This document shows, piece by piece, positions 1 through 45,791 of a stretch of 45,791 nt of DNA. Source of the stretch: a virus. Below the pieces are notes generated by a model that was given only the letters and a program-made list of their open reading frames with translations, had not been told where the DNA came from and made no database searches. The stretch lies in IMG/VR virus record IMGVR_UViG_3300029857_000010; one strand, 5' to 3'. Position 1 is the stretch's first letter. Every line of letters starts with the position of its first letter. The position numbers and the translations under genes were made by a program.

Positions 1-1488
1 AGTCGAAGTGCTGGACAATGAGCTATCCACAGTAATATTAGTAATATCTGTTTTCTTAGCATAGGTATCAACAATGACATTACCTGCACCATCATGAAGT
101 GCTGCTGCTGCTGTTTCAGTTTTACCTAATTTACCATCTAAGGCTTCTTTGATAACCTTGTTCTGCACAGGGTTCAGACTGGAATCACTTAATTCAGCAT
201 CCACATCAATAGAAGTACCACCACCAGAACCCGGATTACCTCTTGGAATCGTAAAGTTCAAGATAGCGTTAGTAGAAGTACCACTATTGGTAACACTTGC
301 ATTAGTACCGGGTTCACCTGTATACACACTACCAATACGGATAGTAGCAGCATTACCAGCAATACCTTGTAAGCCTTGCTCACCTGTATCGCCTTTATCG
401 CCTTTTACACCTTGTATACCTTGTGCGCCAGGGTCACCTTTGTCACCTTTTGCGCCCTTAATGTTTACACTAGCAGGATTATCCAAGCCAGCCTTATTTG
501 TCCAACTCAACACACCAGAAGAAGATACACTAGGGGTGAATACATTGACATTCTCACTATATCGTTTAGCATTGTCCATGTAGGTTTTTGCATTGTCCTT
601 GTAAGTTCGTGCTTCGTTTGCACTACTTCTTGAAGCGTTTGCAAAGTTACTAGCAGTAGTAGCAGCAGACTGTGCCGCTTCCTTGCTGGCTTCTGCGTTG
701 TTTTCGCTAATTTTGGCATTGGCTTCGCTTGCCTTTGCGTTGGTTGCAGATGCCGTAGCGTCAGCCTTGGCGGTTAATGCCTCCTGCTTATAACCACTCG
801 TCAGCTCCGCATTTTCAGCAGCGCTTGCAGCAGATAAGCTCGCGTACTGTGCGCTGTTACCTGCTACGCCTGCTGATTCGAATGCACTATCTTCACTCTT
901 TGCCGCTGCAGCTGCACTTGCAGATGCAATCTGCGCTTGTGCTTGAGTCTGCGCATAAGTGCCTTGCACCAATGGCAAAACCTTTGCCGGGTCTTCCGAC
1001 AATTCAAGAGTTTTTCCGTCGTCGCTAATTCTAAAGCTCTTGCCGTTCTCCCACGGGATTACAGTATCAATATCAGAACTTTTGCTTACACCGATTTTCA
1101 AACTTCTGTCGGTAGTATCGGTAAGCTGTTGCGCAATCATCGTCAATTTGTCACCGATTGCCTCAACCTGGTTAAAAGGATATTGGTCTGGCAAATCCGT
1201 TTCCTGCGTTACCGGCACTTCCCTATAAATCGTCAGTTTCCAACCTGTCGGCAACGCCGGCGGCCGTTCACTCTCCGGCACTTCTGCGCCGACTGCGTAA
1301 CCTGGATAACGCACAACGCTTTTTTCAACGTCAACATAATAATCTTTAGTCAGCAGTTTTTCTTTGCCGTCTGCGTCTGTCAGCAAAACTTTAATGTCCG
1401 TTCGGTTTAAAATTTTAAACTGATACGCAAACTCTGTTGCATTTCCGTTGCCGCTATATGTGATTCTGTTCTCAACATGAGCAAGCAT
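1..1488 (-). CDS. tail fibre protein, N-terminal 496 codons; the gene continues across the window junction into 44991..45692
   Basis: Reverse frame is open from the ATG at complement(1486..1488), which has the SD AAAGGAGGGG 7 nt upstream, down to position 1 with no stop. It contains collagen-like Gly-X-Y triplets (GAKGDKGDPGAQGIQGVKGDKGDTGEQGLQGIAG, about nt 360-462) and Ala/Ser-rich repeats. Protein sequence is continuous with the ORF at the window end (…ITVDSSLSSTST…). Confidence 0.8.
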   Translation of the reverse strand, partial: MLAHVENRITYSGNGNATEFAYQFKILNRTDIKVLLTDADGKEKLLTKDYYVDVEKSVVRYPGYAVGAEVPESERPPALPTGWKLTIYREVPVTQETDLPDQYPFNQVEAIGDKLTMIAQQLTDTTDRSLKIGVSKSSDIDTVIPWENGKSFRISDDGKTLELSEDPAKVLPLVQGTYAQTQAQAQIASASAAAAAKSEDSAFESAGVAGNSAQYASLSAASAAENAELTSGYKQEALTAKADATASATNAKASEANAKISENNAEASKEAAQSAATTASNFANASRSSANEARTYKDNAKTYMDNAKRYSENVNVFTPSVSSSGVLSWTNKAGLDNPASVNIKGAKGDKGDPGAQGIQGVKGDKGDTGEQGLQGIAGNAATIRIGSVYTGEPGTNASVTNSGTSTNAILNFTIPRGNPGSGGGTSIDVDAELSDSSLNPVQNKVIKEALDGKLGKTETAAAALHDGAGNVIVDTYAKKTDITNITVDSSLSSTST

Positions 1489-11176: not shown

Positions 11177-11839
11177 TTACCAGTTCCATTTAGTAAAGCC
11201 TGTATTATCCATGAACGGGTTATTCTTCTTTGCCTGGTTGTAAAGATTGAAGCCGTTCATATTGCTAGCAGGAAGATTGAAATCACTGTTAGCATCGTAC
11301 CAATCGTCACTGCTTACCGTAGTTGTTCCCTTGCTGCCGCCAATCATACCTTTAGAGTAAGCGTTCGCCGCCGCACCTACAAGCGTACTAAACATCTGCA
11401 TTTTGCCGTTGGCTTTAGCGTTCTTCGCCGCCGCATTATATGCGCTTGCCTGGTTGCGATAATTAACCTCGTTTACATAAGTGCTCCACGCATCATTACG
11501 CTGATTTTGCAACAGATTCATACTGTCTTTTTTGTAAGCGTCCTCGCTGCTTGAAAGAATATCAGCAACACTGCCGCTGTCGGTTAGGCCGCTGCTGCCG
11601 GCCGCCGCCAGTGCCTGCCCTCTTGCAAGCCTCATTCTATCGTTGAGTTGGCTTTGCTTCTGCGCATACGCTTCTGCCTGCTGCTCACGTTGGCGGCTCA
11701 TAATAGCCGCGTTCTGCTGTGCAGCCTGCGCCTGCGCTTTATATGCCTGCTCCTGCTGTTTGGCCTGCTGATGTTGTCCGCTTAACTGCATAACAGTTTG
11801 CAGACCCATTAAGATTCCAAGTGTACCCATTACGCTCAC
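11177..11839 (-). CDS. Q/A-rich internal virion protein (positional T7 gp14-like), 220 aa
   Basis: ORF with low-complexity Gln/Ala-rich coiled-coil-like N-terminus. Call is by position between the gp12-like and gp15/16-like genes. Confidence 0.45.
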   Translation of the reverse strand: MSVMGTLGILMGLQTVMQLSGQHQQAKQQEQAYKAQAQAAQQNAAIMSRQREQQAEAYAQKQSQLNDRMRLARGQALAAAGSSGLTDSGSVADILSSSEDAYKKDSMNLLQNQRNDAWSTYVNEVNYRNQASAYNAAAKNAKANGKMQMFSTLVGAAANAYSKGMIGGSKGTTTVSSDDWYDANSDFNLPASNMNGFNLYNQAKKNNPFMDNTGFTKWNW

Positions 11840-12333
11840 TCCCCTCTATATGGAATATAAAACTGATAAAACTTTTTGCCGTCCCAACCTGTTTTAGGCT
11901 CTACCAAAAATACCGCTCCCAAGTGTCTTAAATAGTTAATGCTAGTGCGGTTCTTCTCGTAGACGATATTATGCAGCAGTCCATGCTTGCGTACCCATTC
12001 ATTCAGCACTCTTTTCGCTTCCTTGAAAAGCAGGCTCTTTGTGTAACCATTGTAAAGTTCGTTCGTGCCTACCATCCAGATTCCGCGCCCTGGCGCGCCC
12101 CATTCCATAGTGCCCTTGCCGAATATCGCAAGCAGTTTTCCGTCCTCACCACGGTACACCCTTGTTTCTTCGTCAAGCTTGATACTGCCAATAAGCACAA
12201 ATACCGGGTCACTGCTTGCTTCCAAATCTTCCTTATCATGCGGCCGTATATCCTGCATAAGTTCTTCAATCAACGGCACAACATTTTCTTTTGACTTATT
12301 ATCAAGTATTTCAACTGTCCACTTCTTAGCCAC
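11836..12333 (-). CDS. hypothetical virion protein (positional gp13-like), 165 aa
   Basis: ORF overlapping its neighbours by 4-8 nt, indicating translational coupling. Confidence 0.4.
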   Translation of the reverse strand: MAKKWTVEILDNKSKENVVPLIEELMQDIRPHDKEDLEASSDPVFVLIGSIKLDEETRVYRGEDGKLLAIFGKGTMEWGAPGRGIWMVGTNELYNGYTKSLLFKEAKRVLNEWVRKHGLLHNIVYEKNRTSINYLRHLGAVFLVEPKTGWDGKKFYQFYIPYRGE

Positions 12334-15130
12334 CGAAAGACACCTCCCGCACTACCGCCAGCAAGTTAAAAGGATATGGCTCATCCGTAACGATAATCAC
12401 TCTGCCTTCGTTGTTAAAGCCGCCAATAGGCAAAGTCATATGCTTGTCGCCGGTAAATAATTTAATATCGCTCACTGCGTTCTGTTCGTCAAAGTTCATC
12501 AAGTCCATAGTATTTATATCCGGACCGACCATACCGCCAAGAGAATTACTTAAGCGCAGGATGCAATTACTAATCTGCTTTTTGCGTCCTTGCATAGTGC
12601 CGTCGCCCGTCCTAATTTCGACGTTTGGCAGTTCCACGATACTTCTATAGGGCAAGCCAATAAAAGCGTGTTGTACGGCTGCTGGGAGCGTCACAGTGCC
12701 GTCTTGACTTACTGTCAGTCCACTATACATTCTTCCGTCACCGATAACAGTAACTTTTTCGCCTGTCAGCTCTGCTGCATCAATCTCCGTTTCCCCACTG
12801 CTCTTTTCAGCAGTGCTATACTCAATAGCATTATCAAGCATAATATAATCATCGGGGTTATTGCTTTTTGCAGGATTCTTTGCCAGATACTCAATGTTGC
12901 GTACTGTCACGCCGTTTATCTCTCGCTTTACTACAAGATAAATAATATCTTCGTCGCCTTCCTGCACTGCCGCCACTGCTTCAATCTTGCCTTGCGTTTC
13001 TATCGTCGACCAAGCATATACTTTCTGTTCCATGATGTAGGATAAGCAAGCCATAGTCCCGTCACTTCTCACAAAATATATAGTGCTGTCGGGTTCCTGC
13101 TTATATGCACTGTCGACAATCTGTACATTCTCTATGATATGCTTTGCTAGCAATGTTAAGTCATTGCCGCCGTAGCTGTCTGTTTCATAACTATATGCCA
13201 TATCCCTTACAGTGCTTCCACGTCCTTGTACAAACACGATTCTGCCGCCAATCATCAACGGCTCAACAGTGCTGCATCCGCGTGTAGTCTGCATTTTGGG
13301 AACGGCTTTAGATGGGGTTACAGTATCGCTGCCGCTTACTGTCCATTCGTTGCCAGCGGTCAAGACAATTAAATCGGTGCTTGCTATCAAATGCAAAATC
13401 TTAAACTGCTTGCGGCTTACAAACGCAAGTGCTACTGCGCTATCATCGGTAACAGCGCCACTGGCTTTCTCTACACTGAAATTGCCGTAGTCACCGGTTC
13501 TGCTCATCCATACCATGTAAGGCTGCTTCTTCGTGCCGCCAAAACATAGTCTGTCCTGGAAAAAGCAAAGTGTTTGCGGGTAGCCGAATTCTTCACTCCA
13601 TGCGCCCCACAAGAAATTAGTAGTCATATCTGTTGAGCCTAGCTCTTTTTCAACATGAGCTTTTGCCGTGCTGTCGCTGGTGATTTCAGTAAGTTTTACA
13701 ACGCCTTCCGCATTGTAGGCCATTGCTGTTAAATCAACAGTGCAAGTACCACTACTGATAGTGCATACCGCTCTTAAAAACACCGGCTCTGTTACACTGC
13801 CGCTTTCAGACGGATTATAGTCGTCCTTAGAAGTATATTTCCTGTATTCCTTCCAACTTTCGCCATCGTCACTCTTTTCTATAGCAAAACTGCCGCTCCA
13901 GGTCCCGTGACTGATAACCTTCCAATTTTCGCCTACGCGCACTCTTTCCGTAGTACCGTTGCTGGTTGATACAGTCTTACTTGCAATCTCTTGTTTAAGT
14001 TTGATATACGCACCCGGCTTGCTGTTAGTAAAAATGTTTTTGTTGCTCGATAAGGTAATATCACCTTGAGTTCCCGAAGGTGTCAATTCTTTATTGCCGG
14101 TATATAAAATCTTTACCCAACCATTAGCGCCTGCTTTACCACTCACACCGCCCTTTCTTGTACCGCCTGCACCACCTGCCGCACCGCCACCTTCGCCGTA
14201 TGTTATGCCCTGCGTGCCAGCATTAGAATAATAACCATCCTTACCATACCTGCGACTGGCAGCACCACCTGCGCCGCCGCCTCTGCCTGTTAGTCCACAC
14301 GCCGTACTGTCTGCGCCTTTAGTGCCGCTAGTAGCTGTTGTATCTTCGTAGTTGCCTGCACTATAAGCATAAGCACCGCCGCTGCCACCGCCGCCGACTG
14401 TAATCGTGTAACTTGTTTCTTTAGATAGCGTTATAGTTTTTATAATGCGTTCACCACTGCCGCCGTCGCCACCTTTGGCGGCATAATTATAAACTTGGTG
14501 TTCTCCGTGCCTTTTCCATGTAACGGCACCACCACCGCCGCCGCCTGCACCGGCTATATCAATCTGATATTCGCCGGTAACAGTCGGCTGAAATTGATAA
14601 GTGCCAGGCACTGTATAACTTATGCCGCTATAATTTTCAAGTGAGGTTGATTCGTCGAAATACATATCCGTAATTTCAAAATCAGCAAAGCGCCAGTCAG
14701 TGTCTGAATATCTTGCAAGCTGTTTCACGGGATATTTGCCGCTTGCAATAAACATAGTGTCTGCGCTTTGTACAAATCTCAAATCTTGCAGCATATCTGC
14801 CGTGTATGGTGTCATAACTTCTATGTTTATATAAAGTCCGTTCTTATGCACTCTTATATATTTTTCGCCAATCTCCAAAAGATAGTCGGTATTGTCTGCG
14901 CCGTTGAACGGTACCAGGATGCACGCTTTGTCACTATACTTTGTTCGTGCCATATACTTCATGCCCGGTCTGCGATAAATAGGGCCGTGCGGCTTGATAA
15001 GGCAGTTATAGGCCTGCAGGACCGCAAACTGATACTTATCTAAATCGACGCGGTTTGCAACTTCGGCGCTGATTTCGCCGCCGGTAAACGCAGGCTGCAA
15101 TAAATAATAAGGTGTTAACCCACTAGCCAT
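12326..15130 (-). CDS. tail tubular protein B (T7 gp12-like) with a Gly-rich insertion, 934 aa
   Basis: The segment LCFFQDRLCFGG…MSRTGDYGNFS…DDSAVALAF…DLIVLTAGNEWTVSG aligns with the T7 gp12 segment FFFRNRLGFLSG…LSRTAKYFNFY…DDPIDVAVS…ELLIWSDEAQFVLTASG. A Gly-rich block (GAGGGGGGAV…GGGGSGG…GGGAGGAAS…GGGAAGGAGG) lies at about nt 14096-14548. Confidence 0.7.
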   Translation of the reverse strand: MASGLTPYYLLQPAFTGGEISAEVANRVDLDKYQFAVLQAYNCLIKPHGPIYRRPGMKYMARTKYSDKACILVPFNGADNTDYLLEIGEKYIRVHKNGLYINIEVMTPYTADMLQDLRFVQSADTMFIASGKYPVKQLARYSDTDWRFADFEITDMYFDESTSLENYSGISYTVPGTYQFQPTVTGEYQIDIAGAGGGGGGAVTWKRHGEHQVYNYAAKGGDGGSGERIIKTITLSKETSYTITVGGGGSGGAYAYSAGNYEDTTATSGTKGADSTACGLTGRGGGAGGAASRRYGKDGYYSNAGTQGITYGEGGGAAGGAGGTRKGGVSGKAGANGWVKILYTGNKELTPSGTQGDITLSSNKNIFTNSKPGAYIKLKQEIASKTVSTSNGTTERVRVGENWKVISHGTWSGSFAIEKSDDGESWKEYRKYTSKDDYNPSESGSVTEPVFLRAVCTISSGTCTVDLTAMAYNAEGVVKLTEITSDSTAKAHVEKELGSTDMTTNFLWGAWSEEFGYPQTLCFFQDRLCFGGTKKQPYMVWMSRTGDYGNFSVEKASGAVTDDSAVALAFVSRKQFKILHLIASTDLIVLTAGNEWTVSGSDTVTPSKAVPKMQTTRGCSTVEPLMIGGRIVFVQGRGSTVRDMAYSYETDSYGGNDLTLLAKHIIENVQIVDSAYKQEPDSTIYFVRSDGTMACLSYIMEQKVYAWSTIETQGKIEAVAAVQEGDEDIIYLVVKREINGVTVRNIEYLAKNPAKSNNPDDYIMLDNAIEYSTAEKSSGETEIDAAELTGEKVTVIGDGRMYSGLTVSQDGTVTLPAAVQHAFIGLPYRSIVELPNVEIRTGDGTMQGRKKQISNCILRLSNSLGGMVGPDINTMDLMNFDEQNAVSDIKLFTGDKHMTLPIGGFNNEGRVIIVTDEPYPFNLLAVVREVSFGG

Positions 15131-15132
15131 AA

Positions 15133-15738
15133 TTACGCCCTCCCGTCAAAGTATTTGCTCGGGTAGTCTGGCAACTCTTTCTTTTCGCTTGCCGTGGTAT
15201 ACTTCGCTTTCTGTAATGCCGCCATTGCAAGCTGATACTGTGTCTGCTGCAAGCCGCTGTTGCCGGACAGTTGTACGCAGATATTAAACGCCAGCATATG
15301 AGTAAACGCGCTCAAAAAATCACTTGAAAACATTTCCACATCGTCAACGTCATAGGTATATTCAAGCCACGCAGCAGGGATATTGCAGCCTATACCAAGC
15401 ACGTTGTCACTTGCCATATATAAGTCCCACTCTTCCTGCTGCTGTTCGCCTGCCCTTATCATTGCGCCGGTGTCAGCGTCAAATATCTTGCGCACAGCAA
15501 GGCACTTTTCGGGGTAGGCGTAAACGTGGGACCAGTACGGAGATTCGATACTAAGTTCTGTAAGCTTGCTCACGCGCTTTGCAAATCCCCAAGTGTAGCT
15601 CCTTAATAACTCTTTGCGGGTAGGCTCATAAAACAGTTTGCACTGTCTAGCCAACTCCGACTGCTCATCTATATTGCTTATACGGCCTTTGGCGATATGA
15701 GCCAGCGCCATATTACATACATCGGTAATGTTAAGCAT
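15133..15738 (-). CDS. tail tubular protein A (T7 gp11-like), 201 aa
   Basis: Size and N-terminal pattern (…MALAHIAKGRISNIDEQSELARQCKL…RSYTWGF) resemble T7 gp11. It sits immediately upstream of the gp12-like gene. Confidence 0.55.
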   Translation of the reverse strand: MLNITDVCNMALAHIAKGRISNIDEQSELARQCKLFYEPTRKELLRSYTWGFAKRVSKLTELSIESPYWSHVYAYPEKCLAVRKIFDADTGAMIRAGEQQQEEWDLYMASDNVLGIGCNIPAAWLEYTYDVDDVEMFSSDFLSAFTHMLAFNICVQLSGNSGLQQTQYQLAMAALQKAKYTTASEKKELPDYPSKYFDGRA

Positions 15739-15803
15739 TTTAACTATTCCTCCTTGATTATTAAAAAAGGGAAGAGCTTTCGCCCTCCCCTTAAAGTACT
15801 AAA

Positions 15804-16154
15804 TCAGCCCGGCCAGTTCGGAACAGTTTCAGTCAAGCCAGCAGTCAGTTTGCCGCCGCTTGCGCCGGTAACAGTCAGTCTGGAAAAAGCCTTCATGCCA
15901 TACGGCAGTTTTGCTGCAACCAAAATACCCTTTTTGCTGGCAGCAAGAGTATAAGTCGCCACAACAGTTTTAGTGCCGAAGCTTTCGCTGTCAGAAGTTT
16001 CCAGCGCCGCAGTGATAGTGCCGCTAGTAGCTAAGGCGGTCGGCGCAGTGATAACAAGAAATAACGGGTCGGCCGCATCACCGCCGCCAACGTTCGCAAT
16101 TACATTGCTGGTCAAGGAATTGTCCATGTACATATTTTGCTGGTCAAAAATCAT
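15804..16154 (-). CDS. small Thr/Ala/Gly-rich capsid-associated protein, a possible decoration protein, 116 aa
   Basis: ORF directly downstream of the major capsid gene. Beta-rich, low-complexity composition. Confidence 0.4.
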   Translation of the reverse strand: MIFDQQNMYMDNSLTSNVIANVGGGDAADPLFLVITAPTALATSGTITAALETSDSESFGTKTVVATYTLAASKKGILVAAKLPYGMKAFSRLTVTGASGGKLTAGLTETVPNWPG

Positions 16155-16173
16155 TGTTATTCACTCCTTCCGG

Positions 16174-17175
16174 TTACACGACTGCCGCTTCGGTTTCGCT
16201 CTGGCAGTCAAGTTTCTTAATCTGAATACCTGCAAGGTACAGTTTAGGCGGTGCGCCCATAAAATCTTGACGGGTAACATGAACATTGTTTTTGTTGTTC
16301 AGATAGCACTCCAGCCAAGAGTATACGCCGTCAGATACATACGCAACCGGCGCTTTCGGGTCTTGCAGACGGTTCTTTGCGAAGATGAATTTATTCATCA
16401 GTTCACGTTGCGCACTGTCAGTCAAAGAGTTAAGCTTTTGGACATCAATGTTGCACACGCGCACAATAGAACGAACATTTTGTACCGCCAAGCCACACTT
16501 CCAAGAGTACAAGGTCTGCAATGCACGGAACGGCTTGTTATTCTCATCGTATACGTCGCTTTCGCCCAAGTCCTCAGTCTTCAAGCCTGCCTGGGTGCCT
16601 TTAGGATATACACCCATTACGCGGCGGTCGCCCCAGTCTACGAAGTAGATAGAAGCATTAGTGTTAGTGCCAGGAGTACCCGCGGAAATCACCTGGTGGC
16701 CCGGAGTGCCTTTGCCGCCGTCGGTCAAAGTATTGTAGCGAACCGCAATACCATTGAAAGTGTCCGGGTCTTCATCCAAGTTGCCGTACAAGAATTGACG
16801 TGCGACGTATTGGCCCATGCCTTCTACGTGTGCATCGTCCTCTGCCATACGGAAAGCCTGCGGATTCGGTTTGCCGGAAAGCAATTCAACGTCCACGCAG
16901 GAACGGTCCTCCAAGTGCATACATACATCAATGCGCTGCTTTACAGTGCCTTTAGTCGGAGAAGTACCGCGGTTAATACGACGGATAGACGGAGAAGGCA
17001 GGCTGGCACGAATAGTAGTTTTAGTACCAATCGGCAAATCGCCTTCCATCCACCGAATATCTTCCATAATAGGATTGGATTCGTTAAGCACTTCCATAAC
17101 GCGGTCAATAGCGCCTTGCGGAGTTAAATACTTTCGTAAGTCACTCATAGTTTGGGAGTAACCAATAGTAGCCAT
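16174..17175 (-). CDS. major capsid protein (HK97-fold type), 333 aa
   Basis: Position after the scaffold gene and size are typical for an MCP. Preferred start is ATG (MATIGYSQ…) with GGAAGGA upstream. The ORF track's longer start at 17202 uses TTG. Confidence 0.65.
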   Translation of the reverse strand: MATIGYSQTMSDLRKYLTPQGAIDRVMEVLNESNPIMEDIRWMEGDLPIGTKTTIRASLPSPSIRRINRGTSPTKGTVKQRIDVCMHLEDRSCVDVELLSGKPNPQAFRMAEDDAHVEGMGQYVARQFLYGNLDEDPDTFNGIAVRYNTLTDGGKGTPGHQVISAGTPGTNTNASIYFVDWGDRRVMGVYPKGTQAGLKTEDLGESDVYDENNKPFRALQTLYSWKCGLAVQNVRSIVRVCNIDVQKLNSLTDSAQRELMNKFIFAKNRLQDPKAPVAYVSDGVYSWLECYLNNKNNVHVTRQDFMGAPPKLYLAGIQIKKLDCQSETEAAVV

Positions 17176-17217
17176 AGTTTCATCATCCTTCCTGTTTTTC
17201 AATTAAAAGTTAATAAA

Positions 17218-17895
17218 TTATTTGTACCTGCTCCAGTCGGTTTTCGGGTACATGTTTGCTGCAATGCCTTGCGCAGCGTTTAAGCCTTGTGCGCCGTTTT
17301 GTGCAGCCAAGCCGGGGTCCTCGCCAAGCAGTTCACCAAGTTTTGCAAATGCTCTCACGATAGCTATTTGATTGCCTGCGCCAGTAACCTCTAACGCTTC
17401 ACGCACGTTCAAGCCCGGATACATCGCCTCCAATTTACGGCAGGCAGTATCACAAAGGCCCTGTACTTTGCCCAAGTCTGCGCCCAACGCCGTCTTAGCC
17501 TCATCGCCCCATTTAGCGATTTCCTGCGCACGGAGCTGTTCCACGCCTTGCACTACACGGCTTGCATACTCTGTGCCGTACTTCGCAAGTGCTCTTGCCT
17601 GGTCGTTGCTAAGGTTCATGCCCTTAATGACATCTACAAAGCGTCCTTGCTCATCAGCACTAAGCTCATAGCCTTCTGGCATCTCTACTCCTGCAAAGTC
17701 ATAATTCACTGTGCCGGGCTGCTGTGTGCCTTGCCCATTACTTCTATTCCCTGCAATAGTGCCGGAAGCACTTGTATTATTAGTTGCATTAGTAGTAGTC
17801 GGTTCTGTCTGCTGCTGTTGTGCCGCGGTATTGGGTTCAGCCTGTTGCTGTGCGCCTTCGCCGTTTACAACTGCATTTTCGCCGTTCTCGCCCAT
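17218..17895 (-). CDS. scaffolding protein, 225 aa
   Basis: Acidic, Q/A/T-rich low-complexity N-terminus and helical C-terminus. Lies between the portal and capsid genes. Confidence 0.55.
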   Translation of the reverse strand: MGENGENAVVNGEGAQQQAEPNTAAQQQQTEPTTTNATNNTSASGTIAGNRSNGQGTQQPGTVNYDFAGVEMPEGYELSADEQGRFVDVIKGMNLSNDQARALAKYGTEYASRVVQGVEQLRAQEIAKWGDEAKTALGADLGKVQGLCDTACRKLEAMYPGLNVREALEVTGAGNQIAIVRAFAKLGELLGEDPGLAAQNGAQGLNAAQGIAANMYPKTDWSRYK

Positions 17896-18284
17896 TAGTT
17901 ATTCCCCTTGTTGTTATCCACATATTCCACTGCCAGCTCTTGCAGCTTTAGTTGGAATTCTGCATACTCCATTTCAGCCTGCTGCTTTAGCTCTATGCCT
18001 TGCAGTCCAAGTGCTAAAATGCTTTTAATAATGCCTAAGCCTACGTCGCGGCGGCCTTCGTTATAGAAAGTCTTGCTGTTGCCGGTAAAGCACATAGAGT
18101 TTACTTTGGTCACATCAAGCATACGCATCAAGAACCAGCGTCCGCTTTCACTCCCCAGCAGGTCAAGTAGGGCCTCTTTGTCCCTTCTTGCCTGCTCTCT
18201 TACCATGTACTCTGTCAGCAGTGCTTGCCTTCTATCCTCGCCGGTATTGGATTTATATTTAAACTGCTCGCTCATTATTCCCAA
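17895..18284 (-). CDS. hypothetical protein, 129 aa
   Basis: ORF between the portal and scaffold genes, overlapping the portal stop. Confidence 0.4.
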   Translation of the reverse strand: MGIMSEQFKYKSNTGEDRRQALLTEYMVREQARRDKEALLDLLGSESGRWFLMRMLDVTKVNSMCFTGNSKTFYNEGRRDVGLGIIKSILALGLQGIELKQQAEMEYAEFQLKLQELAVEYVDNNKGNN

Positions 18285-20047
18285 CCTCCCGGCACGCCTA
18301 GCCAGCTTGTAATAGCTGGGTTGGAATCATTCGCCGCCGCAGTAAGATTTTTGGCCGCCTCTGCCGCAGGAGCCGCAGCCTGCGCCATTGCCAAGCCTTC
18401 CTGCATTTCCTGCTGCCGTTGCATTTCCTGCTGCTCTTGTTTGAGCATTTCTTGTACTTCTTCATCACTACGCAATGCCACTGCAGGCACGCCAAGCATT
18501 TCAAAGTATTTTGTAATAGCACCCAACGGGTTAATCTTCTTTGTAACTTCTGGCCATACTTGCGCCATTTGTCCGGTCTGTGCTATCGCCTGTTCGATAT
18601 TCACAAGTCCGCTCATCTTCTGCGCCTGCGCCAGCGGTGAAATATAGTCCACTTCCACATCTTCCTCGCTCAAAAGGTCTTGCAGTTCTTCCGGTACCGG
18701 AGGGAAACCGCCACTTCTGTCGATGATGTTATATACACGTTGAAGAATCAGTGTTAAGAATTCATCCTGCAATCGCTCAACCACGGGGCCTAGCTGTTGC
18801 AGTTTTTCCTGCGTTCTCTCCATAACCTCCCTAGCAGTCATGCGGCTATTATCAAGGTTATCTAACATCAAGAACAAATCAGCACTGTATGCTCTCTTTA
18901 TAGCATCCTCAACGCGAATAATTTCTTCCTGCGCGTCCTTCAAGTCAAGGTCAACCGCGAACAAAGGCTTAACCATATCTTGCGTCTGGTCATCTACGGC
19001 TGTTAGACCGCCAGGCATCAAGTTAATACCGCCGTTATTCATAAGGCTTGGGCTGCCTTGCATCGGCGGCTTTATCTTTAACTCTATTGCTGTGAGATAA
19101 TCTTTTTTCAGCAGTTGCAGCATTTTACTGTCGCCTTCTGCAAACCACGCAGGACCTCTTGCGTATGCTTCATTGCCGCTGACAAGATAACGCGCTACCG
19201 GTACTGCTTCTTCTTCAAAGCCGCCAACATACAAGTATTCGTCGCTCTCTGATTTTTCCAACCAGTACACGCTTCTATACGGCATGTTCAGTCTGTCCAT
19301 GTAGCCAGGCAGTTTATCGCTGTTAGGCTCTACCATCCAGCAGACTTTATACTTCTTAGTAAGATTGGTCTGATTGTCTAACAGTCCTTTCAGATTGTCG
19401 GGCAAAGCGTCTACGCCGAAGCAGTCTGCTAGCTGCTGCAAAGTCATATCGTACTTTCTTGCAAAAGTAGTTACCTTGCCGAAGCCGTCTGCTTCAAGTG
19501 CATAAGTACCGATTGTCATTGTCTGGAACCGCACGCCGTTTTCTGCGTCGTAGAATATAGCCATCGGGCACTGCCCAAAAGGCAACTCCAGATATACAGT
19601 ATGGATGCTATTATAGAAGTTGCTCTTTGCAAGCACACTTGATACAATCTCTTGTCTTGTGTCAAGCACCTTCATAGCCTCAACATTCGTGTTCAGCTCC
19701 GGTCTTCTATATGCAAATCTGAACCACTGACGGCTCGGCGGTGTAAGTCCGCTCATAACGCCAGCGGCAAATACCTGCGCCGCTCTCCACGCTACGCCAT
19801 GCACAATCTTCAAGTCACGTCTGCGCGCGGGATTGGTCTTGTCTGCCGTGTTGTCAAACTCTCCGACAAACGGAAGCTGATAATCTCTTATCTCTTTCCA
19901 TCTGTCCTCCCAATCTCGCCTGTCCTCGTACATGCTTTTGAGCTTACGCACCAAACGCTGGCGGTCCGGCAAGTTCTTTTTCAGCGGCACCCCGTCACTA
20001 GGAAGTGTTCCCTGTGGCTTGCTCGCCGCTATCGTTTGAAAGTTCAT
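18275..20047 (-). CDS. portal / head-to-tail connector protein (T7 gp8-like), 590 aa
   Basis: The segment RMTAREVMERTQEKLQQLGPVVERLQDEFLTLILQRVYNI resembles T7 gp8 RVTAEEIRYVASELEDTLGGVYSILSQELQLPLVRVLLKQL. The Q/A-rich C-terminal tail is also gp8-like. Lies immediately downstream of the terminase gene. Confidence 0.7.
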   Translation of the reverse strand: MNFQTIAASKPQGTLPSDGVPLKKNLPDRQRLVRKLKSMYEDRRDWEDRWKEIRDYQLPFVGEFDNTADKTNPARRRDLKIVHGVAWRAAQVFAAGVMSGLTPPSRQWFRFAYRRPELNTNVEAMKVLDTRQEIVSSVLAKSNFYNSIHTVYLELPFGQCPMAIFYDAENGVRFQTMTIGTYALEADGFGKVTTFARKYDMTLQQLADCFGVDALPDNLKGLLDNQTNLTKKYKVCWMVEPNSDKLPGYMDRLNMPYRSVYWLEKSESDEYLYVGGFEEEAVPVARYLVSGNEAYARGPAWFAEGDSKMLQLLKKDYLTAIELKIKPPMQGSPSLMNNGGINLMPGGLTAVDDQTQDMVKPLFAVDLDLKDAQEEIIRVEDAIKRAYSADLFLMLDNLDNSRMTAREVMERTQEKLQQLGPVVERLQDEFLTLILQRVYNIIDRSGGFPPVPEELQDLLSEEDVEVDYISPLAQAQKMSGLVNIEQAIAQTGQMAQVWPEVTKKINPLGAITKYFEMLGVPAVALRSDEEVQEMLKQEQQEMQRQQEMQEGLAMAQAAAPAAEAAKNLTAAANDSNPAITSWLGVPGGWE

Positions 20048-20262: not shown

Positions 20263-21618
20263 TTATACCGCCTCCATAATCGAATACTCCGTGTTGCACA
20301 TTAGCTTTTTAGGCTTTCTATCATCAAGCCCTAACTGTCTTAACGGAACGTTCCTTGCAAATGTTAATACTAGGCCGTCTGCAAGGTCTGGTGAACGTCC
20401 TAGCTTTTCTTTTATCTCTTCTTTAGGCGTTAACATTAAACGCCCATTCTTAGAATACTTATAGTGAATGACTGCAAGTTCTTCTCTTAATCCCGGTTCC
20501 TCCGGCAAAGCACCGCCAGCCTCTATCCACTCTTTTAGCTTGAAGTACATCTCCGCTCTGATATTCTCGTATCGCTTATTCTCAATCGCTGCGCCTTGAA
20601 ACGGTATCTCTCTTAGCGCCGTGTACCCCATCTGCCTCAATCTGTCGACTACGCCAGCACCCATGTTGCCAACGTCTATAAAGGTCATATCTGCCTTATT
20701 TTCATCCATTGCCAAAGCAATATAATCTGCCGTCTGCATCGTATTCAACTTCTTATATACTCTCGGCCGTGAATATACCATTAGCCCCTTACGCTGCCAT
20801 ATACATGTTCTGTCATCGCCGAAGCGTGCTATATCTGCACCCTGGATAAGCGGCATATCATAGGGAATGTCCTTTTCCGTCAACTCTCTATTGAAAGCCC
20901 TGTCTAATTCTTCCAGACTGAAAAGCTCGTTGATTGCCGATACGCTAAAGTCACACAAATACTCTTGTCTGAATTCTACCTCCGGCATATCCTCTTTCAG
21001 TTCTTCTATGCTCTTTGCGTCTATAATGCCGCTATCGTACACGTTCGACAAATACGCAAAGTAACGCTTATTCGTCTTGGCCTTCTTGTACATCTCATAG
21101 AAGTTGTTCTGCCCCTTAGGTGTACCGATGAAATAGCAATAACCTTTTCTGTCGCCATTCTCTATCGCAGGTCTGATAATCTGCGTCCACATCTCCGGCT
21201 TCATATCCGAATACTCGTCAAGGATTACGCCGTCCCAATATGTACCGCGCAATGCGTCGGGATTATTCGCACCAACGATATATATTCTCGCTCCCTGCGC
21301 TCCAGGTACTTTACTGGGGAATTCAACATACTTTTTAGTTTCATTCACCTTGATGCCCTCTATGACGCTTGTGTAATACTTCAATGGGCCCCACGCGATA
21401 ATTTCCATCTGTGCGCTGAACGGACCTACTAAAGCATACTGCGGACTGATTAAGTCGCTCTGCAAAGCATCCCTTATAAGGTGATTCACCATTCCGATGG
21501 TCTTACCAAAGCGGCGGTGTGCTACGATTACTGCAAAGCGGTGTCTGCTTAATTCCTTATGCAGTACCTTCGCCCATGCAGGTCGTGGAGTATATGGTAT
21601 TTGTATTATGTTTTCCAT
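20263..21618 (-). CDS. terL: terminase large subunit, 451 aa
   Basis: ATPase motifs (…AHRRFGKT…, …GVILDEYSDM…) and a C-terminal nuclease-like region (FIDVGNMGAGVVDRL). True start is ATG at complement(21616..21618) with SD AGGGGG. The 64-aa N-terminal extension in the ORF track reads through noncoding sequence. Confidence 0.75.
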   Translation of the reverse strand: MENIIQIPYTPRPAWAKVLHKELSRHRFAVIVAHRRFGKTIGMVNHLIRDALQSDLISPQYALVGPFSAQMEIIAWGPLKYYTSVIEGIKVNETKKYVEFPSKVPGAQGARIYIVGANNPDALRGTYWDGVILDEYSDMKPEMWTQIIRPAIENGDRKGYCYFIGTPKGQNNFYEMYKKAKTNKRYFAYLSNVYDSGIIDAKSIEELKEDMPEVEFRQEYLCDFSVSAINELFSLEELDRAFNRELTEKDIPYDMPLIQGADIARFGDDRTCIWQRKGLMVYSRPRVYKKLNTMQTADYIALAMDENKADMTFIDVGNMGAGVVDRLRQMGYTALREIPFQGAAIENKRYENIRAEMYFKLKEWIEAGGALPEEPGLREELAVIHYKYSKNGRLMLTPKEEIKEKLGRSPDLADGLVLTFARNVPLRQLGLDDRKPKKLMCNTEYSIMEAV

Positions 21619-21996
21619 GTTTACCCCCTTGAAAAAATCGTTTTGGTAATTTTTGGTATTTACCTCCCCCGGCGGCTGCGAAATTTTTGGGCCCCACCCC
21701 CACTCAATGTCAGCGGGAAAGGCAAGAACCAAAATCAATTTTTGCGAAAACCCAGGGAAATCACCAACACCAGCGCTGCCAAACAACCAATCAGAACCCA
21801 CGCCAAACAAAAATAAAAACGTGGTAGGCCTGCCGCATGAGCCACGCAGGAACGGCCGCCAACATCTGCCAGGCGAACGCCTGCCGCTAACATCATCAGC
21901 CAGGCCGTCAACATCTGGAACCGCCAGCTAATCAGCAGCAGCAGGATAATATTTTACGTCCGATAATAAGGATTATGTTAAAAGTTCTATCTATGT

Positions 21997-24397: not shown

Positions 24398-24478
24398 CCG
24401 AAACGCCGCCCCGTGCGGCGTATACCGGGGACCGGCCGCCCCGGTACTGATGAGGCAGGCCAAAGGAAGGAGATAAGA

Positions 24479-24709
24479 ATGAAAATAGCTATTATAAGCA
24501 AATTGACACCCGAGCATCCGGCGTGGAAGCACGGGAAGCGCTTAGACGTAAAAATCTTTACGCAGCTTTACCCCGGCGGCCCGCAATATTATTGCGGAAA
24601 CGGCAAATATTGTGAAGATATGGAAGCGGTAAAAGCTTTTATCGCAGAAGAAGCGCCGGACAAAATCAGCGACGAAAGGACAATAGGAGGCTTGAAAAAT
24701 GAAGCGTGA
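24479..24709 (+). CDS. hypothetical protein, 76 aa
   Basis: ORF with SD AAGGAAGGAG. The track's longer start at 24413 has no SD. Confidence 0.5.
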   Translation: MKIAIISKLTPEHPAWKHGKRLDVKIFTQLYPGGPQYYCGNGKYCEDMEAVKAFIAEEAPDKISDERTIGGLKNEA

Positions 24710-24878
24710 AGAAGCGTTAAAATTGTTGCTGAAGATTGAAGAATTCCGGCAGCAACCGGCAATGCATAAGGCGGAACATGATTTTACGTGTCGCATTATC
24801 GCCGCTATGGTTGCGGAAGCAGGCGGCTTTAAAAGCCGGAACGAATGGACCGCAGAAATCAAGGAGGCTTTAAAGTGA
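24699..24878 (+). CDS. small hypothetical protein, 59 aa
   Basis: ATG with SD AGGAGG 8 nt upstream. Overlaps the upstream gene by 11 nt. Below the ORF-track size cutoff. Confidence 0.4.
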   Translation: MKREEALKLLLKIEEFRQQPAMHKAEHDFTCRIIAAMVAEAGGFKSRNEWTAEIKEALK

Positions 24879-25030
24879 AGCGAAAAGAGCGCAAACATCA
24901 ATATTTAAAGCTTGCCAAATCTTTACGCAGTTTGTCACACGCTAAAGGCGGCGTTAAAAAATTAACATACGCCCAGCAGTGCGCGTATTGGGACAGCGTG
25001 AGCTTGCTATATTTGTTCAATCTTTTGTAA
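24875..25030 (+). CDS. small basic hypothetical protein, 51 aa, GTG start
   Basis: GTG preceded by AAGGAGG (24861-24867). Overlaps the previous stop. Confidence 0.3.
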   Translation: MKRKERKHQYLKLAKSLRSLSHAKGGVKKLTYAQQCAYWDSVSLLYLFNLL

Positions 25031-25110
25031 AGGACCCACTACACCGGCAGGAATGCCGCTGCCGGTGTAGAATATTAAAGGCAGAAGCGATTTTTTAGGA
25101 GGAATTAACC

Positions 25111-26055: not shown

Positions 26056-26067
26056 GGAGGAAGAATA

Positions 26068-36054: not shown

Positions 36055-36420
36055 ATGAAAGAGCGTTTAAAGCTATTGCGCAAAGCTTTAAAACTAAATC
36101 AACAGGAGTTTGCGGATAAAATTCAGGTCAATCGTTCTACCGTTGCTGGTTATGAACGCGGCTCAACGAATTTATCAGAGCGAACAATCACAGACATCTG
36201 CCGTGTATTTTACGTTAATGAAGATTGGCTACGTACTGGCGAAGGTGAAATGTTCCGTGCCAGGAATACAACCAACGAAGAATTAGCACTGCAAGTTGGC
36301 AAACTGCTAAAGACAGATGATGAGTTTACCAAGAATCTATTTTTGGAATATCTCAAACTGCCGCCCGAAATGAAAACTTTATTTGAAGATTTCGTTCACA
36401 ATCTGGCGAAAAGCAAATAA
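36055..36420 (+). CDS. CI-like XRE-family repressor, 121 aa
   Basis: HTH NQQEFADKIQVNRSTVAGYERG. Transcribed divergently from the early operon and adjacent to the integrase. Confidence 0.65.
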   Translation: MKERLKLLRKALKLNQQEFADKIQVNRSTVAGYERGSTNLSERTITDICRVFYVNEDWLRTGEGEMFRARNTTNEELALQVGKLLKTDDEFTKNLFLEYLKLPPEMKTLFEDFVHNLAKSK

Positions 36421-37933: not shown

Positions 37934-38953
37934 ATGAAATTACCTAACGGCTATGGCTCTGTTACGAAGCTGACCGGGAACCGGCGGCGGCCGTATATGG
38001 TCCGCATTACAACGGGCTTTACCGATGAAGGTCGCCAGCTTATGAAAATACTAGGCTACTATGCAAAGCGCACGGAAGCCCTTAATGCCCTGGCTGAATA
38101 CAATCAATCACCCTATGATGTTGAAAGCGTAGGCTTGACGTTTGCCCAGGTACACGAGAGATGGGAAGCCGCAACCTACGTTGACGGCAAAGAGCAATCT
38201 AACCAATATAAGGCAGCATATAAGCGCTGCGCGCCACTATGGGATATACCGTTCAAAGATATTAAGACTGCGCAATTTCAGCAAGTCATAAATGACTGCG
38301 ACAAAGGCTACGCTACCAAGAAGGCAATCCGAATCGTATGTAATCTGATGGCCAAATATGCGCTTGCTAATGATATTATAGTAAAAAATTATGTTGAGCT
38401 TACTAGCCTACCGCCCCAGGTTGAAAGCAGAATACACAATCCGCTTACTAAAAAGGAGCTTGCTATATTATGGGAAAACAGCAAGGATATAAAAGTGCAA
38501 GCCGTGCTTATCCTCTGTTATACCGGCATGCGCCCCACCGAGCTAGTGAAGGTTGAGAAGGCGAACGTCGACTTTGAAAATAAATTCTTCGTTGGCGGCA
38601 TGAAAACTGCGGCAGGCCGCGGCAGAAGAATTCCTATTGCTGATAAAATATTCGACTTCTTCAAGGATGCTTGTGAACGCAGCACCGGCGAATATATCTT
38701 TTCTGATGAACGGGGCAAGAATATATCCTATGACGCATACCGCAGCAGATATTGGGAACCGGTAATGAATATGTTTAAGATGGACCACTTGCCCGGTGAC
38801 GGCCGCCACACTTGCGCAAGCCTGCTTGATGATAAAGACGTAAATGTAAAAATCAAGAAGCTAATTCTGGGGCACGCCAGCTCCGATGTAACGGAAAGGG
38901 TTTACACTCATAAGACGTTGGAACAACTATTAGAGGCTATAAATTTAATATAG
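37934..38953 (+). CDS. int: tyrosine recombinase / integrase with AP2-like arm-binding N-terminus
   Basis: N-terminus MKLPNGYGSVTKLTGNRRRPYMVRIT is the AP2-like arm-binding domain signature. Catalytic region has TGMRPTEL and LGHASSDVTERVYTH (H-x-x-R…Y). Confidence 0.8.
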   Translation: MKLPNGYGSVTKLTGNRRRPYMVRITTGFTDEGRQLMKILGYYAKRTEALNALAEYNQSPYDVESVGLTFAQVHERWEAATYVDGKEQSNQYKAAYKRCAPLWDIPFKDIKTAQFQQVINDCDKGYATKKAIRIVCNLMAKYALANDIIVKNYVELTSLPPQVESRIHNPLTKKELAILWENSKDIKVQAVLILCYTGMRPTELVKVEKANVDFENKFFVGGMKTAAGRGRRIPIADKIFDFFKDACERSTGEYIFSDERGKNISYDAYRSRYWEPVMNMFKMDHLPGDGRHTCASLLDDKDVNVKIKKLILGHASSDVTERVYTHKTLEQLLEAINLI

Positions 38954-39200
38954 TTTGTTACATACGTGTTACATATGTGTTACATACCTGTTACATACGT
39001 AGCTTATTTTCTATGAGCTGTGGACACTTTTTGAAAATAACGGAAGCAAAGAAAAAGCCAGCAACCTGCATGGTTACGGGCTTTTCTTGCGATTTGTGAT
39101 TGATTGAGATAGCCTTCTCTATTAACGTTTGGTAAATTGAGCACCCTTATTTTAAGCCATTCTTTACGCTATTTGTTACATACCTGTCACATACGATATG
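38954..39200. other. putative attP region with 11-bp arm-type direct repeats (TGTTACATAC-like)
   Basis: Four tandem 11-bp copies at 38954-38997 and two more at 39174-39195, flanking about 175 bp of noncoding sequence. They lie immediately 3' of int. Confidence 0.55.
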
Positions 39201-44598: not shown

Positions 44599-44991
44599 TT
44601 AATAATCTTCAACTGTGGGTGTCATCGCATTTATTGCTTTACCCCACGAGAAAGTAACGCCAGATGTATACAGACAGTTAAAATGCAATGTATAGGTTTT
44701 ATTTGGTGTTACACCTACAATGGAATCAATATTTTCATGGTCTACGTTGACACCACCATCATCAGCATCTGAGTAGCCTTCACCCCATTTATTATTGCTT
44801 GTTGTATTTTTAATAACAGCATAATAGGTAGCTGATGGCTCATTCTCAGCAAAATCAACCTCTGCAAACACTTTGATTCTTTTAATACCTAGCGGAACAG
44901 TAAAAGTTATTGTTTTATCATTTACTTCATCATAATTCCAATGCTTGTTACCATCCTTAATATTTACTTCACCAAAGAACAACCTTCTCAT
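44599..44991 (-). CDS. hypothetical tail-associated protein, 130 aa
   Basis: ORF directly after the tail-fibre stop, beta-rich. Confidence 0.4.
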   Translation of the reverse strand: MRRLFFGEVNIKDGNKHWNYDEVNDKTITFTVPLGIKRIKVFAEVDFAENEPSATYYAVIKNTTSNNKWGEGYSDADDGGVNVDHENIDSIVGVTPNKTYTLHFNCLYTSGVTFSWGKAINAMTPTVEDY

Positions 44992-45791
44992 TATGCACCA
45001 CTTCCTAACTTATGAGCCTGTACAATGCTTACAATACCATTAGGGTTCTTTATCATCCAGACAGTCAGAAGCGTACCAGAGCCGGAAATAGCAATATCGC
45101 TTGCGCTACCTATATATGTCATAGTACCTGCACCACTGATAGTCAGAGCATGGTCAGCATCAGCAGTAAAGTATGCAGAGAATACAATGGATTCATACGT
45201 ACCAAGCAACATAGCAAAATTAGAGAGATTAAGAGTAAAATCACCATTTGTTGTATACCACATTGTATCAGTTACCGGTGTATCAGTAGTGCCTTCTACA
45301 TAATAGCCGGTATGGCAGGCACGGAAGGTCTTTGTGTTATAAAACTCCTGCACTGCCGTCCATGTATTTTCAGAGGATGTACTTACACCACCAGTAGCCG
45401 TAATAGTTACATTGCCACTCGCATCGGGTGCTGTGCCATTGACAGATTTAACCACACCACTAATATCAGTTTTCTTAGCGTAAGTGGATGTGATTACATT
45501 GCCATCACCATCATGGGTTGCTGCCCTAGCCGTGCCACTATAATTCACAGCGTTGATTGAACCAACAAATTGTGTACCTTCACGCCACCTTATATTAGTA
45601 GCTCCACCCGATAAAGCAAAACCAGAGAGAACATCTGCGATATTCATTTTGTCAGCTAAGGCACTGTATATAACCTTGTTCTGTACAGGGTTAGTCGAAG
45701 TGCTGGACAATGAGCTATCCACAGTAATATTAGTAATATCTGTTTTCTTAGCATAGGTATCAACAATGACATTACCTGCACCATCATGAAG
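44991..45791 (-). CDS. tail fibre protein, C-terminal portion; continuous with 1..1488 across the circular junction (45693-45791 duplicates 1-99)
   Basis: Reverse frame is open from 45791 down to the stop at 44991. Protein reads …VDSSLSSTSTNPVQNKV…, identical to the end of the 1..1488 segment. Confidence 0.8.
   Translation of the reverse strand, partial: LHDGAGNVIVDTYAKKTDITNITVDSSLSSTSTNPVQNKVIYSALADKMNIADVLSGFALSGGATNIRWREGTQFVGSINAVNYSGTARAATHDGDGNVITSTYAKKTDISGVVKSVNGTAPDASGNVTITATGGVSTSSENTWTAVQEFYNTKTFRACHTGYYVEGTTDTPVTDTMWYTTNGDFTLNLSNFAMLLGTYESIVFSAYFTADADHALTISGAGTMTYIGSASDIAISGSGTLLTVWMIKNPNGIVSIVQAHKLGSGA
45693..45791. repeat. exact 99-bp duplicate of positions 1-99: circular-closure overlap
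   Basis: Identical sequence at both window ends. Lies inside the tail-fibre ORF. Confidence 0.9.

Follow-up and report, generated by a model that had tools for sequence, protein, structure and literature searches.

The IMG/VR virus record IMGVR_UViG_3300029857_000010 is a 45,791-nucleotide stretch of DNA (hereafter, the window), and here we describe the phage genome that it holds, starting from the virion genes between positions 11177 and 20047. Nearly all genes of the window lie on the minus strand. Read along that strand from 20047 down to 11177 and on to 1628, they encode the portal, a Bbp19-like protein, a protein of phrog_458, the major capsid protein, a Bbp16-like protein, the tail adaptor, the tail nozzle, gp13-like and gp14-like internal virion proteins, a protein with an SLT domain and a giant protein of 2478 amino acids, with the terminase genes upstream of the portal (Table 1). 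An initial annotation, made from the sequence alone, had proposed that the genes from portal to tail fibre follow the order of T7 gp8 to gp17, and all of them are found as it placed them.

The window is a circular assembly with a unit of 45,692 bp, which excludes a linear fragment, since the same 99 bases stand at both ends (1-99 and 45693-45791) and the 729-residue open reading frame (ORF) of the tail fibre continues without interruption across the junction. True terminal repeats were considered and rejected, as the 99-bp duplication sits within the fibre ORF and is best read as the assembler's overlap of a circular path; its length resembles an assembler k-mer rather than a biological terminal repeat. 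No tRNA genes were found in the window.

Table 1. Features of the window, with lengths in amino acids (aa) and the matches that identify them.
Feature	Position	Strand	Evidence
Terminase large subunit	20263..21810	-	PF03237 Terminase_6N; phrog_2 E 4e-52; 28% identity to epsilon15 TerL
Portal (head-tail connector), T7 gp8 family, 590 aa	18275..20047	-	Pfam PF12236 Head-tail_con E 5e-146, 487 bits vs cut-off 27
Bbp19-like small protein, 129 aa	17895..18284	-	PF25181 Phage_Bbp19 31 bits vs cut-off 25; phrog_528 E 1.6e-22
225-aa protein, scaffold/protease position	17218..17895	-	phrog_458 'protease' E 2.7e-45
Major capsid protein, epsilon15 gp7 type (HK97 fold), 342 aa	16174..17202	-	PF20911 GP7 E 2e-101; NCBIfam NF045672 MCP_gp7_epsi_15 equivalog, 240 bits vs cut-off 75
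Probable capsid cement/decoration protein (Bbp16-like), 116 aa	15804..16154	-	phrog_427 E 1e-19; PF21190 Bbp16 20 bits, under 27.1 cut-off
Tail adaptor (tail tubular protein A, gp11 type), 201 aa	15133..15738	-	PDB 8ck1_E Carin-1 'Connector Protein' E 2e-22
Tail nozzle (tail tubular protein B, gp12 type), 934 aa	12326..15130	-	PDB 8ck1_A Carin-1 'Tail Nozzle' E 4e-95 in three stretches; phrog_376 E 2e-209
Internal virion protein A (gp13-like), 165 aa	11836..12333	-	phrog_308 E 2.9e-29; T7 gp13 E 8e-6 (BLASTP, phmmer); PF11090 21 bits, under 25 cut-off
Internal virion protein B (gp14 family), 220 aa	11177..11839	-	PF24072 T7_gp14 E 1.5e-15, 58 bits vs cut-off 27; phrog_418, phrog_805
Internal virion protein with lytic transglycosylase domain, gp15 position, 699 aa	9065..11164	-	PF01464 SLT at residues 297-384, 27.5 bits vs cut-off 21.3
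Giant internal virion protein (gp16/IVP-D type), 2478 aa	1628..9064	-	phrog_9880 E 3e-152; PF18798 LPD3 at residues 562-678
Tail fibre, 5' part (729 aa in total across the circular junction)	1..1488	-	Continuous ORF; N-terminal domain phrog_13893 and phrog_1640 E 3e-15
Tail fibre, 3' part	44991..45692	-	Collagen-like repeat and tail-fibre PHROGs in the full-length protein
Tail-fibre-associated protein (DUF4376), 176 aa	44082..44612	-	PF14301 E 6e-16; phrog_1141, phrog_2837 tail fibre
Tyrosine integrase	37934..38953	+	PF00589 E 5e-14
Helix-turn-helix (HTH; Xre/CI-type) repressor candidate	36055..36420	+	PF01381 E 3.5e-14; divergent to early operon
attP	38954..39193		Core TTAACGTTTGG 39122-39132 (11 bp); arm repeats TGTTACATA, four copies 38954-38997, two 39172-39193

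Beyond its Pfam match, the portal falls in phrog_332, its two halves match phrog_21643 and phrog_21528 very strongly and near full length, and a sequence search of the PDB aligned it with the solved portal of phage Carin-1 (8ck0_A, E 1e-96). It is 25% identical to T7 gp8 over 578 colinear residues (BLASTP) and 34% identical to epsilon15 gp4; within the set of portals used for the tree described below, identity is 19% to T7 gp8 versus 30-36% to phages of the epsilon15 group. The capsid protein is 36% identical to epsilon15 gp7 and showed no similarity to T7 gp10/gp10A on direct comparison, and neither it nor the terminase looks T7-like by these matches. Among the small head genes, the Bbp19-like gene holds the position of BPP-1 Bbp19 and epsilon15 gp5, and the Bbp16-like gene that of BPP-1 Bbp16 and epsilon15 gp8. 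The 225-aa gene, which the initial annotation had labelled a scaffold, instead falls in a PHROG annotated as a protease and occupies the slot of the epsilon15 gp6 'putative endoprotease' and BPP-1 Bbp18; its product has no Pfam match and no similarity to epsilon15 gp6 by tblastn.

The two tail genes that follow connect the module to both epsilon15 and T7. The adaptor is 28.5% identical to epsilon15 gp11 (tblastn, E 9e-22), and an AlphaFold (AF2) model built on 44 homologues, with a predicted local distance difference test score (pLDDT) of 87, placed the Carin-1 adaptor first in Foldseek (template modelling score, TM, 0.80), followed by the adaptors of LME-1, PhiM1 and cyanophages. The same model matches T7 gp11 (7box_M; E 7.6e-7, TM 0.55-0.61) and KP32 tail tubular protein A. 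Profile comparison with T7 gp11 gave only E 0.45 (hhalign), undetectable by sequence, so that the link to gp11 is one of predicted fold alone. The nozzle is 35% identical to epsilon15 gp12 (tblastn, E 2.5e-55) and reaches T7 gp12 by BLASTP in three colinear segments (E 4.9e-4) and by hhalign over 394 columns (E 8.4e-4), with FFxxRLxF and SRTxxYxNF motifs common to both. The aligned segment corresponds to residues 354-556 of T7 gp12, the central domain conserved between T7 and epsilon15 (Hardies et al., 2016; PMC4819975). In Foldseek, the nine best matches to the nozzle model are all podovirus nozzles, T7 gp12 among them (6r21_a, E 9e-10). Direct phmmer searches of portal, adaptor and nozzle against the PDB reached Carin-1 and not the T7 chains. 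The relationships to gp8, gp11 and gp12 that had been proposed at the outset are thus borne out by profiles, solved structures and predicted folds, including the comparison of predicted structures with T7 that had been suggested as a check, and the T7 link is a distant one, made mainly by profiles and folds.

One feature of the nozzle sets it apart from some of its relatives. An insert of about 300 residues, at about residues 160-470, is rich in GGxGG motifs, matches PF21722 Gly_rich_2 at residues 175-355 and is predicted with good confidence to be all-beta. Because some relatives, of 743-750 aa, are without it, the insert is a modular decoration, and it possibly binds the cell surface.

The ejectosome genes complete the module. 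The SLT protein holds the position of the epsilon15 gp15 'putative lytic transglycosylase' and is kept in a more distant relative (L020, below). In the giant protein, residues from about 740 to 2450 match large internal proteins of Carin-1, BPP-1, Caulobacter phage Jess A, and Vibrio and Nostoc phages. Since the homologue in BPP-1 (Bbp10) has 2052 aa and that in the Nostoc phage about 4012 aa, a protein of this size is normal for the epsilon15/BPP-1 group, with just the first 740 or so residues added. This N-terminal stretch (window 6845-9064) is without counterpart in the Carin-1, BPP-1 and Caulobacter phage homologues, and the scan matched it just to LPD3; it may be an injected effector region. 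Searches of the giant protein, the SLT protein and a 211-aa putative endolysin against PDB sequences returned no match. The fibre shares its N-terminus with T7 gp17 (BLASTP, E 3e-4) and with the epsilon15 tailspike (39% identity).

No tape measure, tail tube, sheath or RNA polymerase was found among the ORFs longer than 500 aa, all of which were scanned and assigned other roles, in agreement with the initial annotation, which had reported no phage RNA polymerase and named a tape-measure or tail-tube gene as what would overturn its proposal. The lack of tape-measure, tube and sheath genes is consistent with a short non-contractile tail.

Temperate podoviruses with a T7-type tail tube A/B and internal virion proteins A, B and D have been described as the epsilon15 structural homology group, with epsilon15, BPP-1, BcepC6B, VP5 and Liberibacter SC1 as members (Hardies et al., 2016; PMC4819975). 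We place Carin-1 in this group too. The window shares these properties with it: a gp8-family portal, a gp7-type capsid protein, an adaptor and nozzle that are adjacent and downstream of the capsid gene, proteins A, B and D with a transglycosylase in synteny after the nozzle, and a temperate lifestyle. The combination of a temperate genome with a T7-type tail, which had been thought uncommon, is therefore that of an established group.

Epsilon15 (Uetakevirus) resembles the window in layout across the whole genome. Both genomes run from TerS, TerL and portal through the small protein, the protease-like protein, capsid, cement, adaptor, nozzle, gp13, gp14, SLT protein and large internal proteins to the fibre or spike, lysis genes, attP and integrase, with a RecT/exonuclease pair and the repressor on the other side, and eight window proteins gave ten colinear tblastn matches to epsilon15. 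The two differ in that they share no nucleotide similarity and infect an enterobacterium in one case and a Negativicute in the other; that epsilon15 has gp16 plus gp17 where the window has one giant protein; and that the window has a glycine-rich insert in its nozzle, a collagen-like fibre rather than an O-antigen tailspike, a Firmicute-type replisome organiser rather than a DnaT-like protein, and no serotype-conversion genes. With BPP-1 (Rauchvirus) the window shares the Bbp19-like and Bbp16-like proteins, the order from portal to giant protein, the temperate lifestyle and a nozzle 30% identical to Bbp13, whereas portal identity is 32% and the diversity-generating retroelement of BPP-1 was not found in the window. 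We looked for a retroelement of this kind and rejected it, as there was no reverse transcriptase (RVT) match among the ORFs scanned and no repeat of the template/variable (TR/VR) type; the only long direct repeats in the window are the iterons and att arms described below and a repeat internal to the fibre gene. With no megablast match for 11177-20047 among the reference phages, and protein identities to epsilon15 of 28-39%, the phage falls outside both Uetakevirus and Rauchvirus. Cobetia phage Carin-1 (electron cryomicroscopy structures 8CK0 and 8CK1) is the best relative with a solved structure and has a homologous large internal protein, but its host is a marine gammaproteobacterium and its nozzle has 830 aa without the glycine-rich insert. 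The Carin-1 tail spike is the depolymerase Dpo31 (PMC13317679).

With T7 (Autographiviridae) the window has in common the design of tail and ejectosome, the gp8-to-gp17 order, the adaptor and nozzle folds, members of the gp13 and gp14 families and the gp17-like fibre N-terminus. It differs in having neither phage RNA polymerase nor phage DNA polymerase, in its capsid protein family, in being temperate and in carrying SLT activity on the protein at the gp15 position, where T7 has it on gp16. Of the T7-like particle first proposed, the T7-type tail and ejectosome stand, while the capsid protein and the genome architecture are of epsilon15 type.

The evidence for lysogeny and for the host comes from the attachment site. 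The integrase, CI-like repressor, attP arm sites and RecT, YqaJ, RusA and DnaD-like early genes listed in the initial annotation are all present, and its view of the phage as temperate is upheld by integrase, repressor, attP and integrated copies alike. The TGTTACATA arms of attP number four on the integrase side, spaced at 11 bp, and two on the other. When the window was aligned to several contigs, the phage-host junctions at both prophage ends broke exactly at TTAACGTTTGG, which is present in both attL and attR. This core overlaps the final codons of host rpsI, stop codon included, and integration thus restores the end of the gene. Exact copies of the integrase sequence were found in 223 collection blocks, and in six long metagenome contigs the integrase is directly followed by rpsI, rplM, truA and ecf transporter genes. 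Circular and integrated forms of the phage are therefore both documented.

The S9, L13 and TruA proteins encoded beside these six integrated copies are identical to those of Phascolarctobacterium succinatutens, of the class Negativicutes. The window portal itself is RefSeq WP_337807672.1, from P. succinatutens, and P. succinatutens CAG:287 has a portal 99% identical to it on a contig of 84.6 kb. Phascolarctobacterium is not known to form spores. The host is thus P. succinatutens, a human-gut Negativicute with an outer membrane, and not the spore-forming, single-membrane Firmicute first suggested. Negativicutes have two membranes (Rands, Brussow and Zdobnov, 2019; bioRxiv 10.1101/606087), and an ejectosome of Gram-negative type is therefore to be expected here and is no anomaly; for a two-membrane host one would look for a protein of gp14 type at the outer membrane, together with an SLT domain and large proteins that form a channel.

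The replication genes have a different affinity. The replisome organiser (PF09681 with a DnaB_2 trace) gave 111 phage matches, nearly all to phages of Streptococcus, Staphylococcus, Lactococcus, Faecalibacterium and Clostridium. A palindromic 15-mer, GGGACATTTTGTCCC, recurs at 23-bp spacing at 30615-30687 and 31372-31467, with three copies within the organiser gene and three or four some 750 bp away, upstream of a 102-aa gene. By analogy with Firmicute phages whose organiser binds within its own gene, these iterons are probably the replication origin. As the virion module belongs to the gene pool of Gram-negative phages and the organiser is of the type found in Firmicute phages, the genome is a mosaic in which a virion module of diderm type is joined to a replication module of Firmicute type.

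We next consider how the phage is distributed. Against a reference collection of 50,697 phage records, region 11177-20047 gave no nucleotide match by megablast. By tblastn, the portal matched 211 of these records, the nozzle 222 and the giant protein 50, all at less than 40% identity and including epsilon15 and its relatives, BPP-1, BcepC6B, Ab31, Caulobacter phage Jess A, Carin-1, Vibrio and Pelagibacter podophages, Liberibacter SC1/SC2 and a Nostoc phage. The hosts of the cultured relatives are all Proteobacteria or cyanobacteria, with portal identities of 36% or less. Nearer relatives are found in Negativicutes. Adaptor homologues span identities of 99% to 38%; those that carry names are from Phascolarctobacterium sp., from P. 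faecium isolates with genomes of 2.46 Mb and from a Selenomonadales bacterium. In the portal family (8,419 representative clusters) the nearest labelled members are from Veillonella sp. 3627 (48%) and Anaeroselena agilis (40%). A relative on a 155-kb contig (L020), with 57% portal and 40% adaptor identity, keeps the full gene order, the insert-bearing nozzle and a giant protein of 2293 aa. In a neighbour-joining tree of portals, a clade of Phascolarctobacterium and Veillonella sequences that excludes all nine reference phages was recovered in 99 of 100 bootstraps. The portal of Anaeroselena (Selenomonadales), which is about 40% identical to proteobacterial phage portals and 39% to the window portal, joins that clade in 33 of 100, and monophyly of all Negativicute-labelled portals is accordingly unsupported.

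An exact copy of the portal sequence was found in 117 collection blocks. Portal relatives are encoded on 129 IMG/VR contigs; identity is 97-100% for at least 57 of these, many of which are 44-47 kb long. Near-full-length matches to the small families phrog_15863, phrog_21643 and phrog_21528 suggest that close relatives are already represented in PHROGs. No specific description of a Phascolarctobacterium or Veillonella podovirus was found in the literature searched, and the phage is apparently undescribed, though heavily catalogued.

Taken together, these data lead us to conclude, with a confidence of about 90%, that the window is the complete circular 45.7-kb genome of a temperate short-tailed phage of P. 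succinatutens, belonging to the epsilon15/BPP-1 structural group. Several points weigh against this conclusion. The morphology, capsid geometry and ejectosome action of the particle are drawn from homologues, and the indications of activity are the circular assembly and the intact genes. At the sequence level, T7 gp8, gp12 and gp14 are reached marginally and gp11 not at all. The nozzle model has low confidence (pLDDT 65), its conserved core being poor, since the retrievable homologues are shallow; and the scaffold or protease role of the 225-aa protein is inferred from its position.

Other readings of the locus can be set against the same observations. In the first, the T7-like particle belongs to a temperate phage whose host is a Firmicute that forms spores and has a single membrane, where a Gram-negative-type ejectosome would be out of the ordinary. 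In its favour, the DnaD-like organiser, RecT and YqaJ resemble Firmicute-phage genes, and there is a weak match to the BclA C-terminus; the junctions beside P. succinatutens genes already refute it for this phage, and Veillonella, Anaeroselena and complete P. faecium genomes carry related prophages. Two labels also count in favour of the idea. A 47.7-kb contig (L007, CAAGQJ010000059.1) with a 99% identical portal is binned in a metagenome-assembled genome labelled 'Bacilli bacterium', but a contig of about phage length says little through its bin, and the label looks like a binning error rather than a second host. Among the adaptor relatives, one with 38% identity (P0147/P0316 cluster) bears the label 'Culicoidibacterales bacterium', which would place it in the Bacillota class Culicoidibacteria and outside the Negativicutes, but the Culicoidibacterales contigs (L030, L031) are just 2.7-3.5 kb long and carry capsid, Bbp16-like and Bbp19-like genes with no host flank. 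This relative would merit attention if it were truly integrated in that host. For the window phage, we regard a spore-forming host as highly improbable. Membership of the T7 family proper, with an integrase acquired secondarily, would account for the PF12236 portal and for the gp11, gp12, gp13, gp14 and gp17 N-terminal relationships, but Autographiviridae would be expected to bring a single-subunit RNA polymerase, which was not found among the ORFs longer than 500 aa, a T7-type DNA polymerase, a gp10-type capsid protein and a strictly lytic lifestyle. The window has none of these; its capsid protein is an epsilon15 gp7 equivalog, its terminase is of the Terminase_6N type and its portal is nearer to epsilon15-group phages than to T7 gp8, which makes the chance of this explanation close to negligible.

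A defective or cryptic prophage remnant that makes no particles would be compatible with the many copies known as integrated prophages alone. The closed, full-length circular assembly, the intactness of all structural ORFs and the abundance of exact and near-exact copies, many of phage length, argue otherwise, and we consider a remnant very unlikely. A further question is whether the virion module was imported recently from a proteobacterial phage rather than belonging to a lineage that has long resided in Negativicutes. In favour of a recent import, the cultured relatives are without exception phages of Proteobacteria or cyanobacteria, and the Anaeroselena portal is as near to proteobacterial phages as to the window phage. 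On the other hand, no cultured phage exceeds 36% portal identity or matches at the nucleotide level, the Phascolarctobacterium-Veillonella clade is separated from the nine reference phages, and the whole module, insert-bearing nozzle and giant protein included, has been kept in the relative at 57% portal and 40% adaptor identity. Recent import is, on this evidence, unlikely.

If the P. succinatutens phage works as its homologues do, its capsid would probably have T=7 geometry; portal and adaptor would be dodecamers, the nozzle a hexamer and the fibres six trimers, and the internal proteins would be packed as a core on the portal, as in T7 and the epsilon15 group. At adsorption the internal proteins would be ejected through the nozzle; the gp14-type protein would open the outer membrane, the SLT domain would cut peptidoglycan and the large internal proteins would form a transient channel to the cytoplasm. 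Such an ejectosome could work in this member of the Firmicutes, since the Negativicute envelope combines an outer membrane with a thin wall. Inside the cell, the genome would be transcribed by the host RNA polymerase, and replication would use the Firmicute-phage-type organiser, acting on the palindromic iterons.

Further features lie around the virion and lysogeny genes. Within the fibre, residues from about 440 to 580 (window 130-174 and 45648-45692) hold two copies of a segment of about 60 aa (…NPVQNKVI…DGAGNVI…TYAKKTDI…), 3' of the collagen-like G-x-y run, and the DNA repeat is 78% identical. After the fibre genes, on the minus strand, 42084-44057 is a probable lysis cassette. It encodes two small membrane proteins (118 and 91 aa), a possible endolysin of 211 aa that matched no family, and a protein of 155 aa whose signal-like N-terminal segment, long coiled coil and hydrophobic C-terminal end recall the layout of a spanin, which would fit a two-membrane host. 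Between the lysis region and attP, also on the minus strand, 39238-41906 encodes a 79-aa protein with a sigma-70 region 4 or LuxR-type HTH, a Q-rich 143-aa protein, a 237-aa Gly/Cys-rich membrane protein, a 140-aa protein with the weak BclA C-terminal (C1q-like) match and a DUF7841 protein; these may be a late regulator and cargo. A plus-strand island at 23453-27106, between the early and late operons, has a G+C content of 0.52 versus 0.44-0.49 and reversed skews. Its 314-aa protein matches phrog_15863 (E 1.9e-155) and, weakly, DnaJ, and its other proteins are without family. PADLOC found no defence-model match in the island or in the DUF805, SLT and giant proteins. The slot between repressor and integrase (36867-37511, plus strand) holds the DUF805 membrane protein in the window, whereas otherwise near-identical prophages (L011, L013, L014 at 9250-9613) hold shorter, unrelated genes there, and some relatives have a DNA cytosine methylase in the early region; this slot and the early methylase site are variable 'moron' positions.

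A survey of 485 Negativicute prophages found them mostly lambdoid, long-tailed and like Firmicute phages, with portal relatives at 40% identity in Firmicutes alone; acquisition from Proteobacteria was deemed unlikely, and no podovirus was mentioned (Rands, Brussow and Zdobnov, 2019; bioRxiv 10.1101/606087). The window phage resembles those prophages in host class and in its Firmicute-style placing of the lysis cassette between the tail genes and the lysogeny module, and its relationship to Veillonella prophages echoes the link drawn there between Veillonellales and Acidaminococcales. It departs from them in that the cultured relatives of its virion module are phages of Proteobacteria and cyanobacteria alone. 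Phages of epsilon15 type on any Firmicutes host are absent from the reference collection, and we found no description of one in the literature searched. What is new is the host class and the mosaic, the kind of phage being already known.

The finding gives Phascolarctobacterium, a common succinate-consuming gut genus, a well-defined and apparently active podovirus, in which the parts that cross or break the two-membrane envelope come from the gene pool of Gram-negative phages and the replisome organiser from that of Firmicute phages. How epsilon15-type phages are understood to work is unaltered, and the phage offers a test system for a T7-type ejectosome acting on a Firmicute outer membrane. 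It also tempers the conclusion that Negativicute phages are unrelated to proteobacterial phages, the virion module being an exception. A more tentative reading, which we consider rather unlikely, is that envelope-crossing virion modules track the cell envelope of the host and replication modules its cytoplasmic machinery. Negativicutes (Acidaminococcales, Veillonellales and possibly Selenomonadales) would then hold a long-resident epsilon15-type podovirus lineage of their own, with an ejectosome adapted to the Firmicute outer membrane. Most metagenomic relatives carry no host label. If true, such a lineage would clearly depart from the published picture, in which Negativicute phages resemble Firmicute phages alone, and, given co-divergence of lineage and hosts, would provide independent evidence that the Negativicute outer membrane is old and was not recently acquired.

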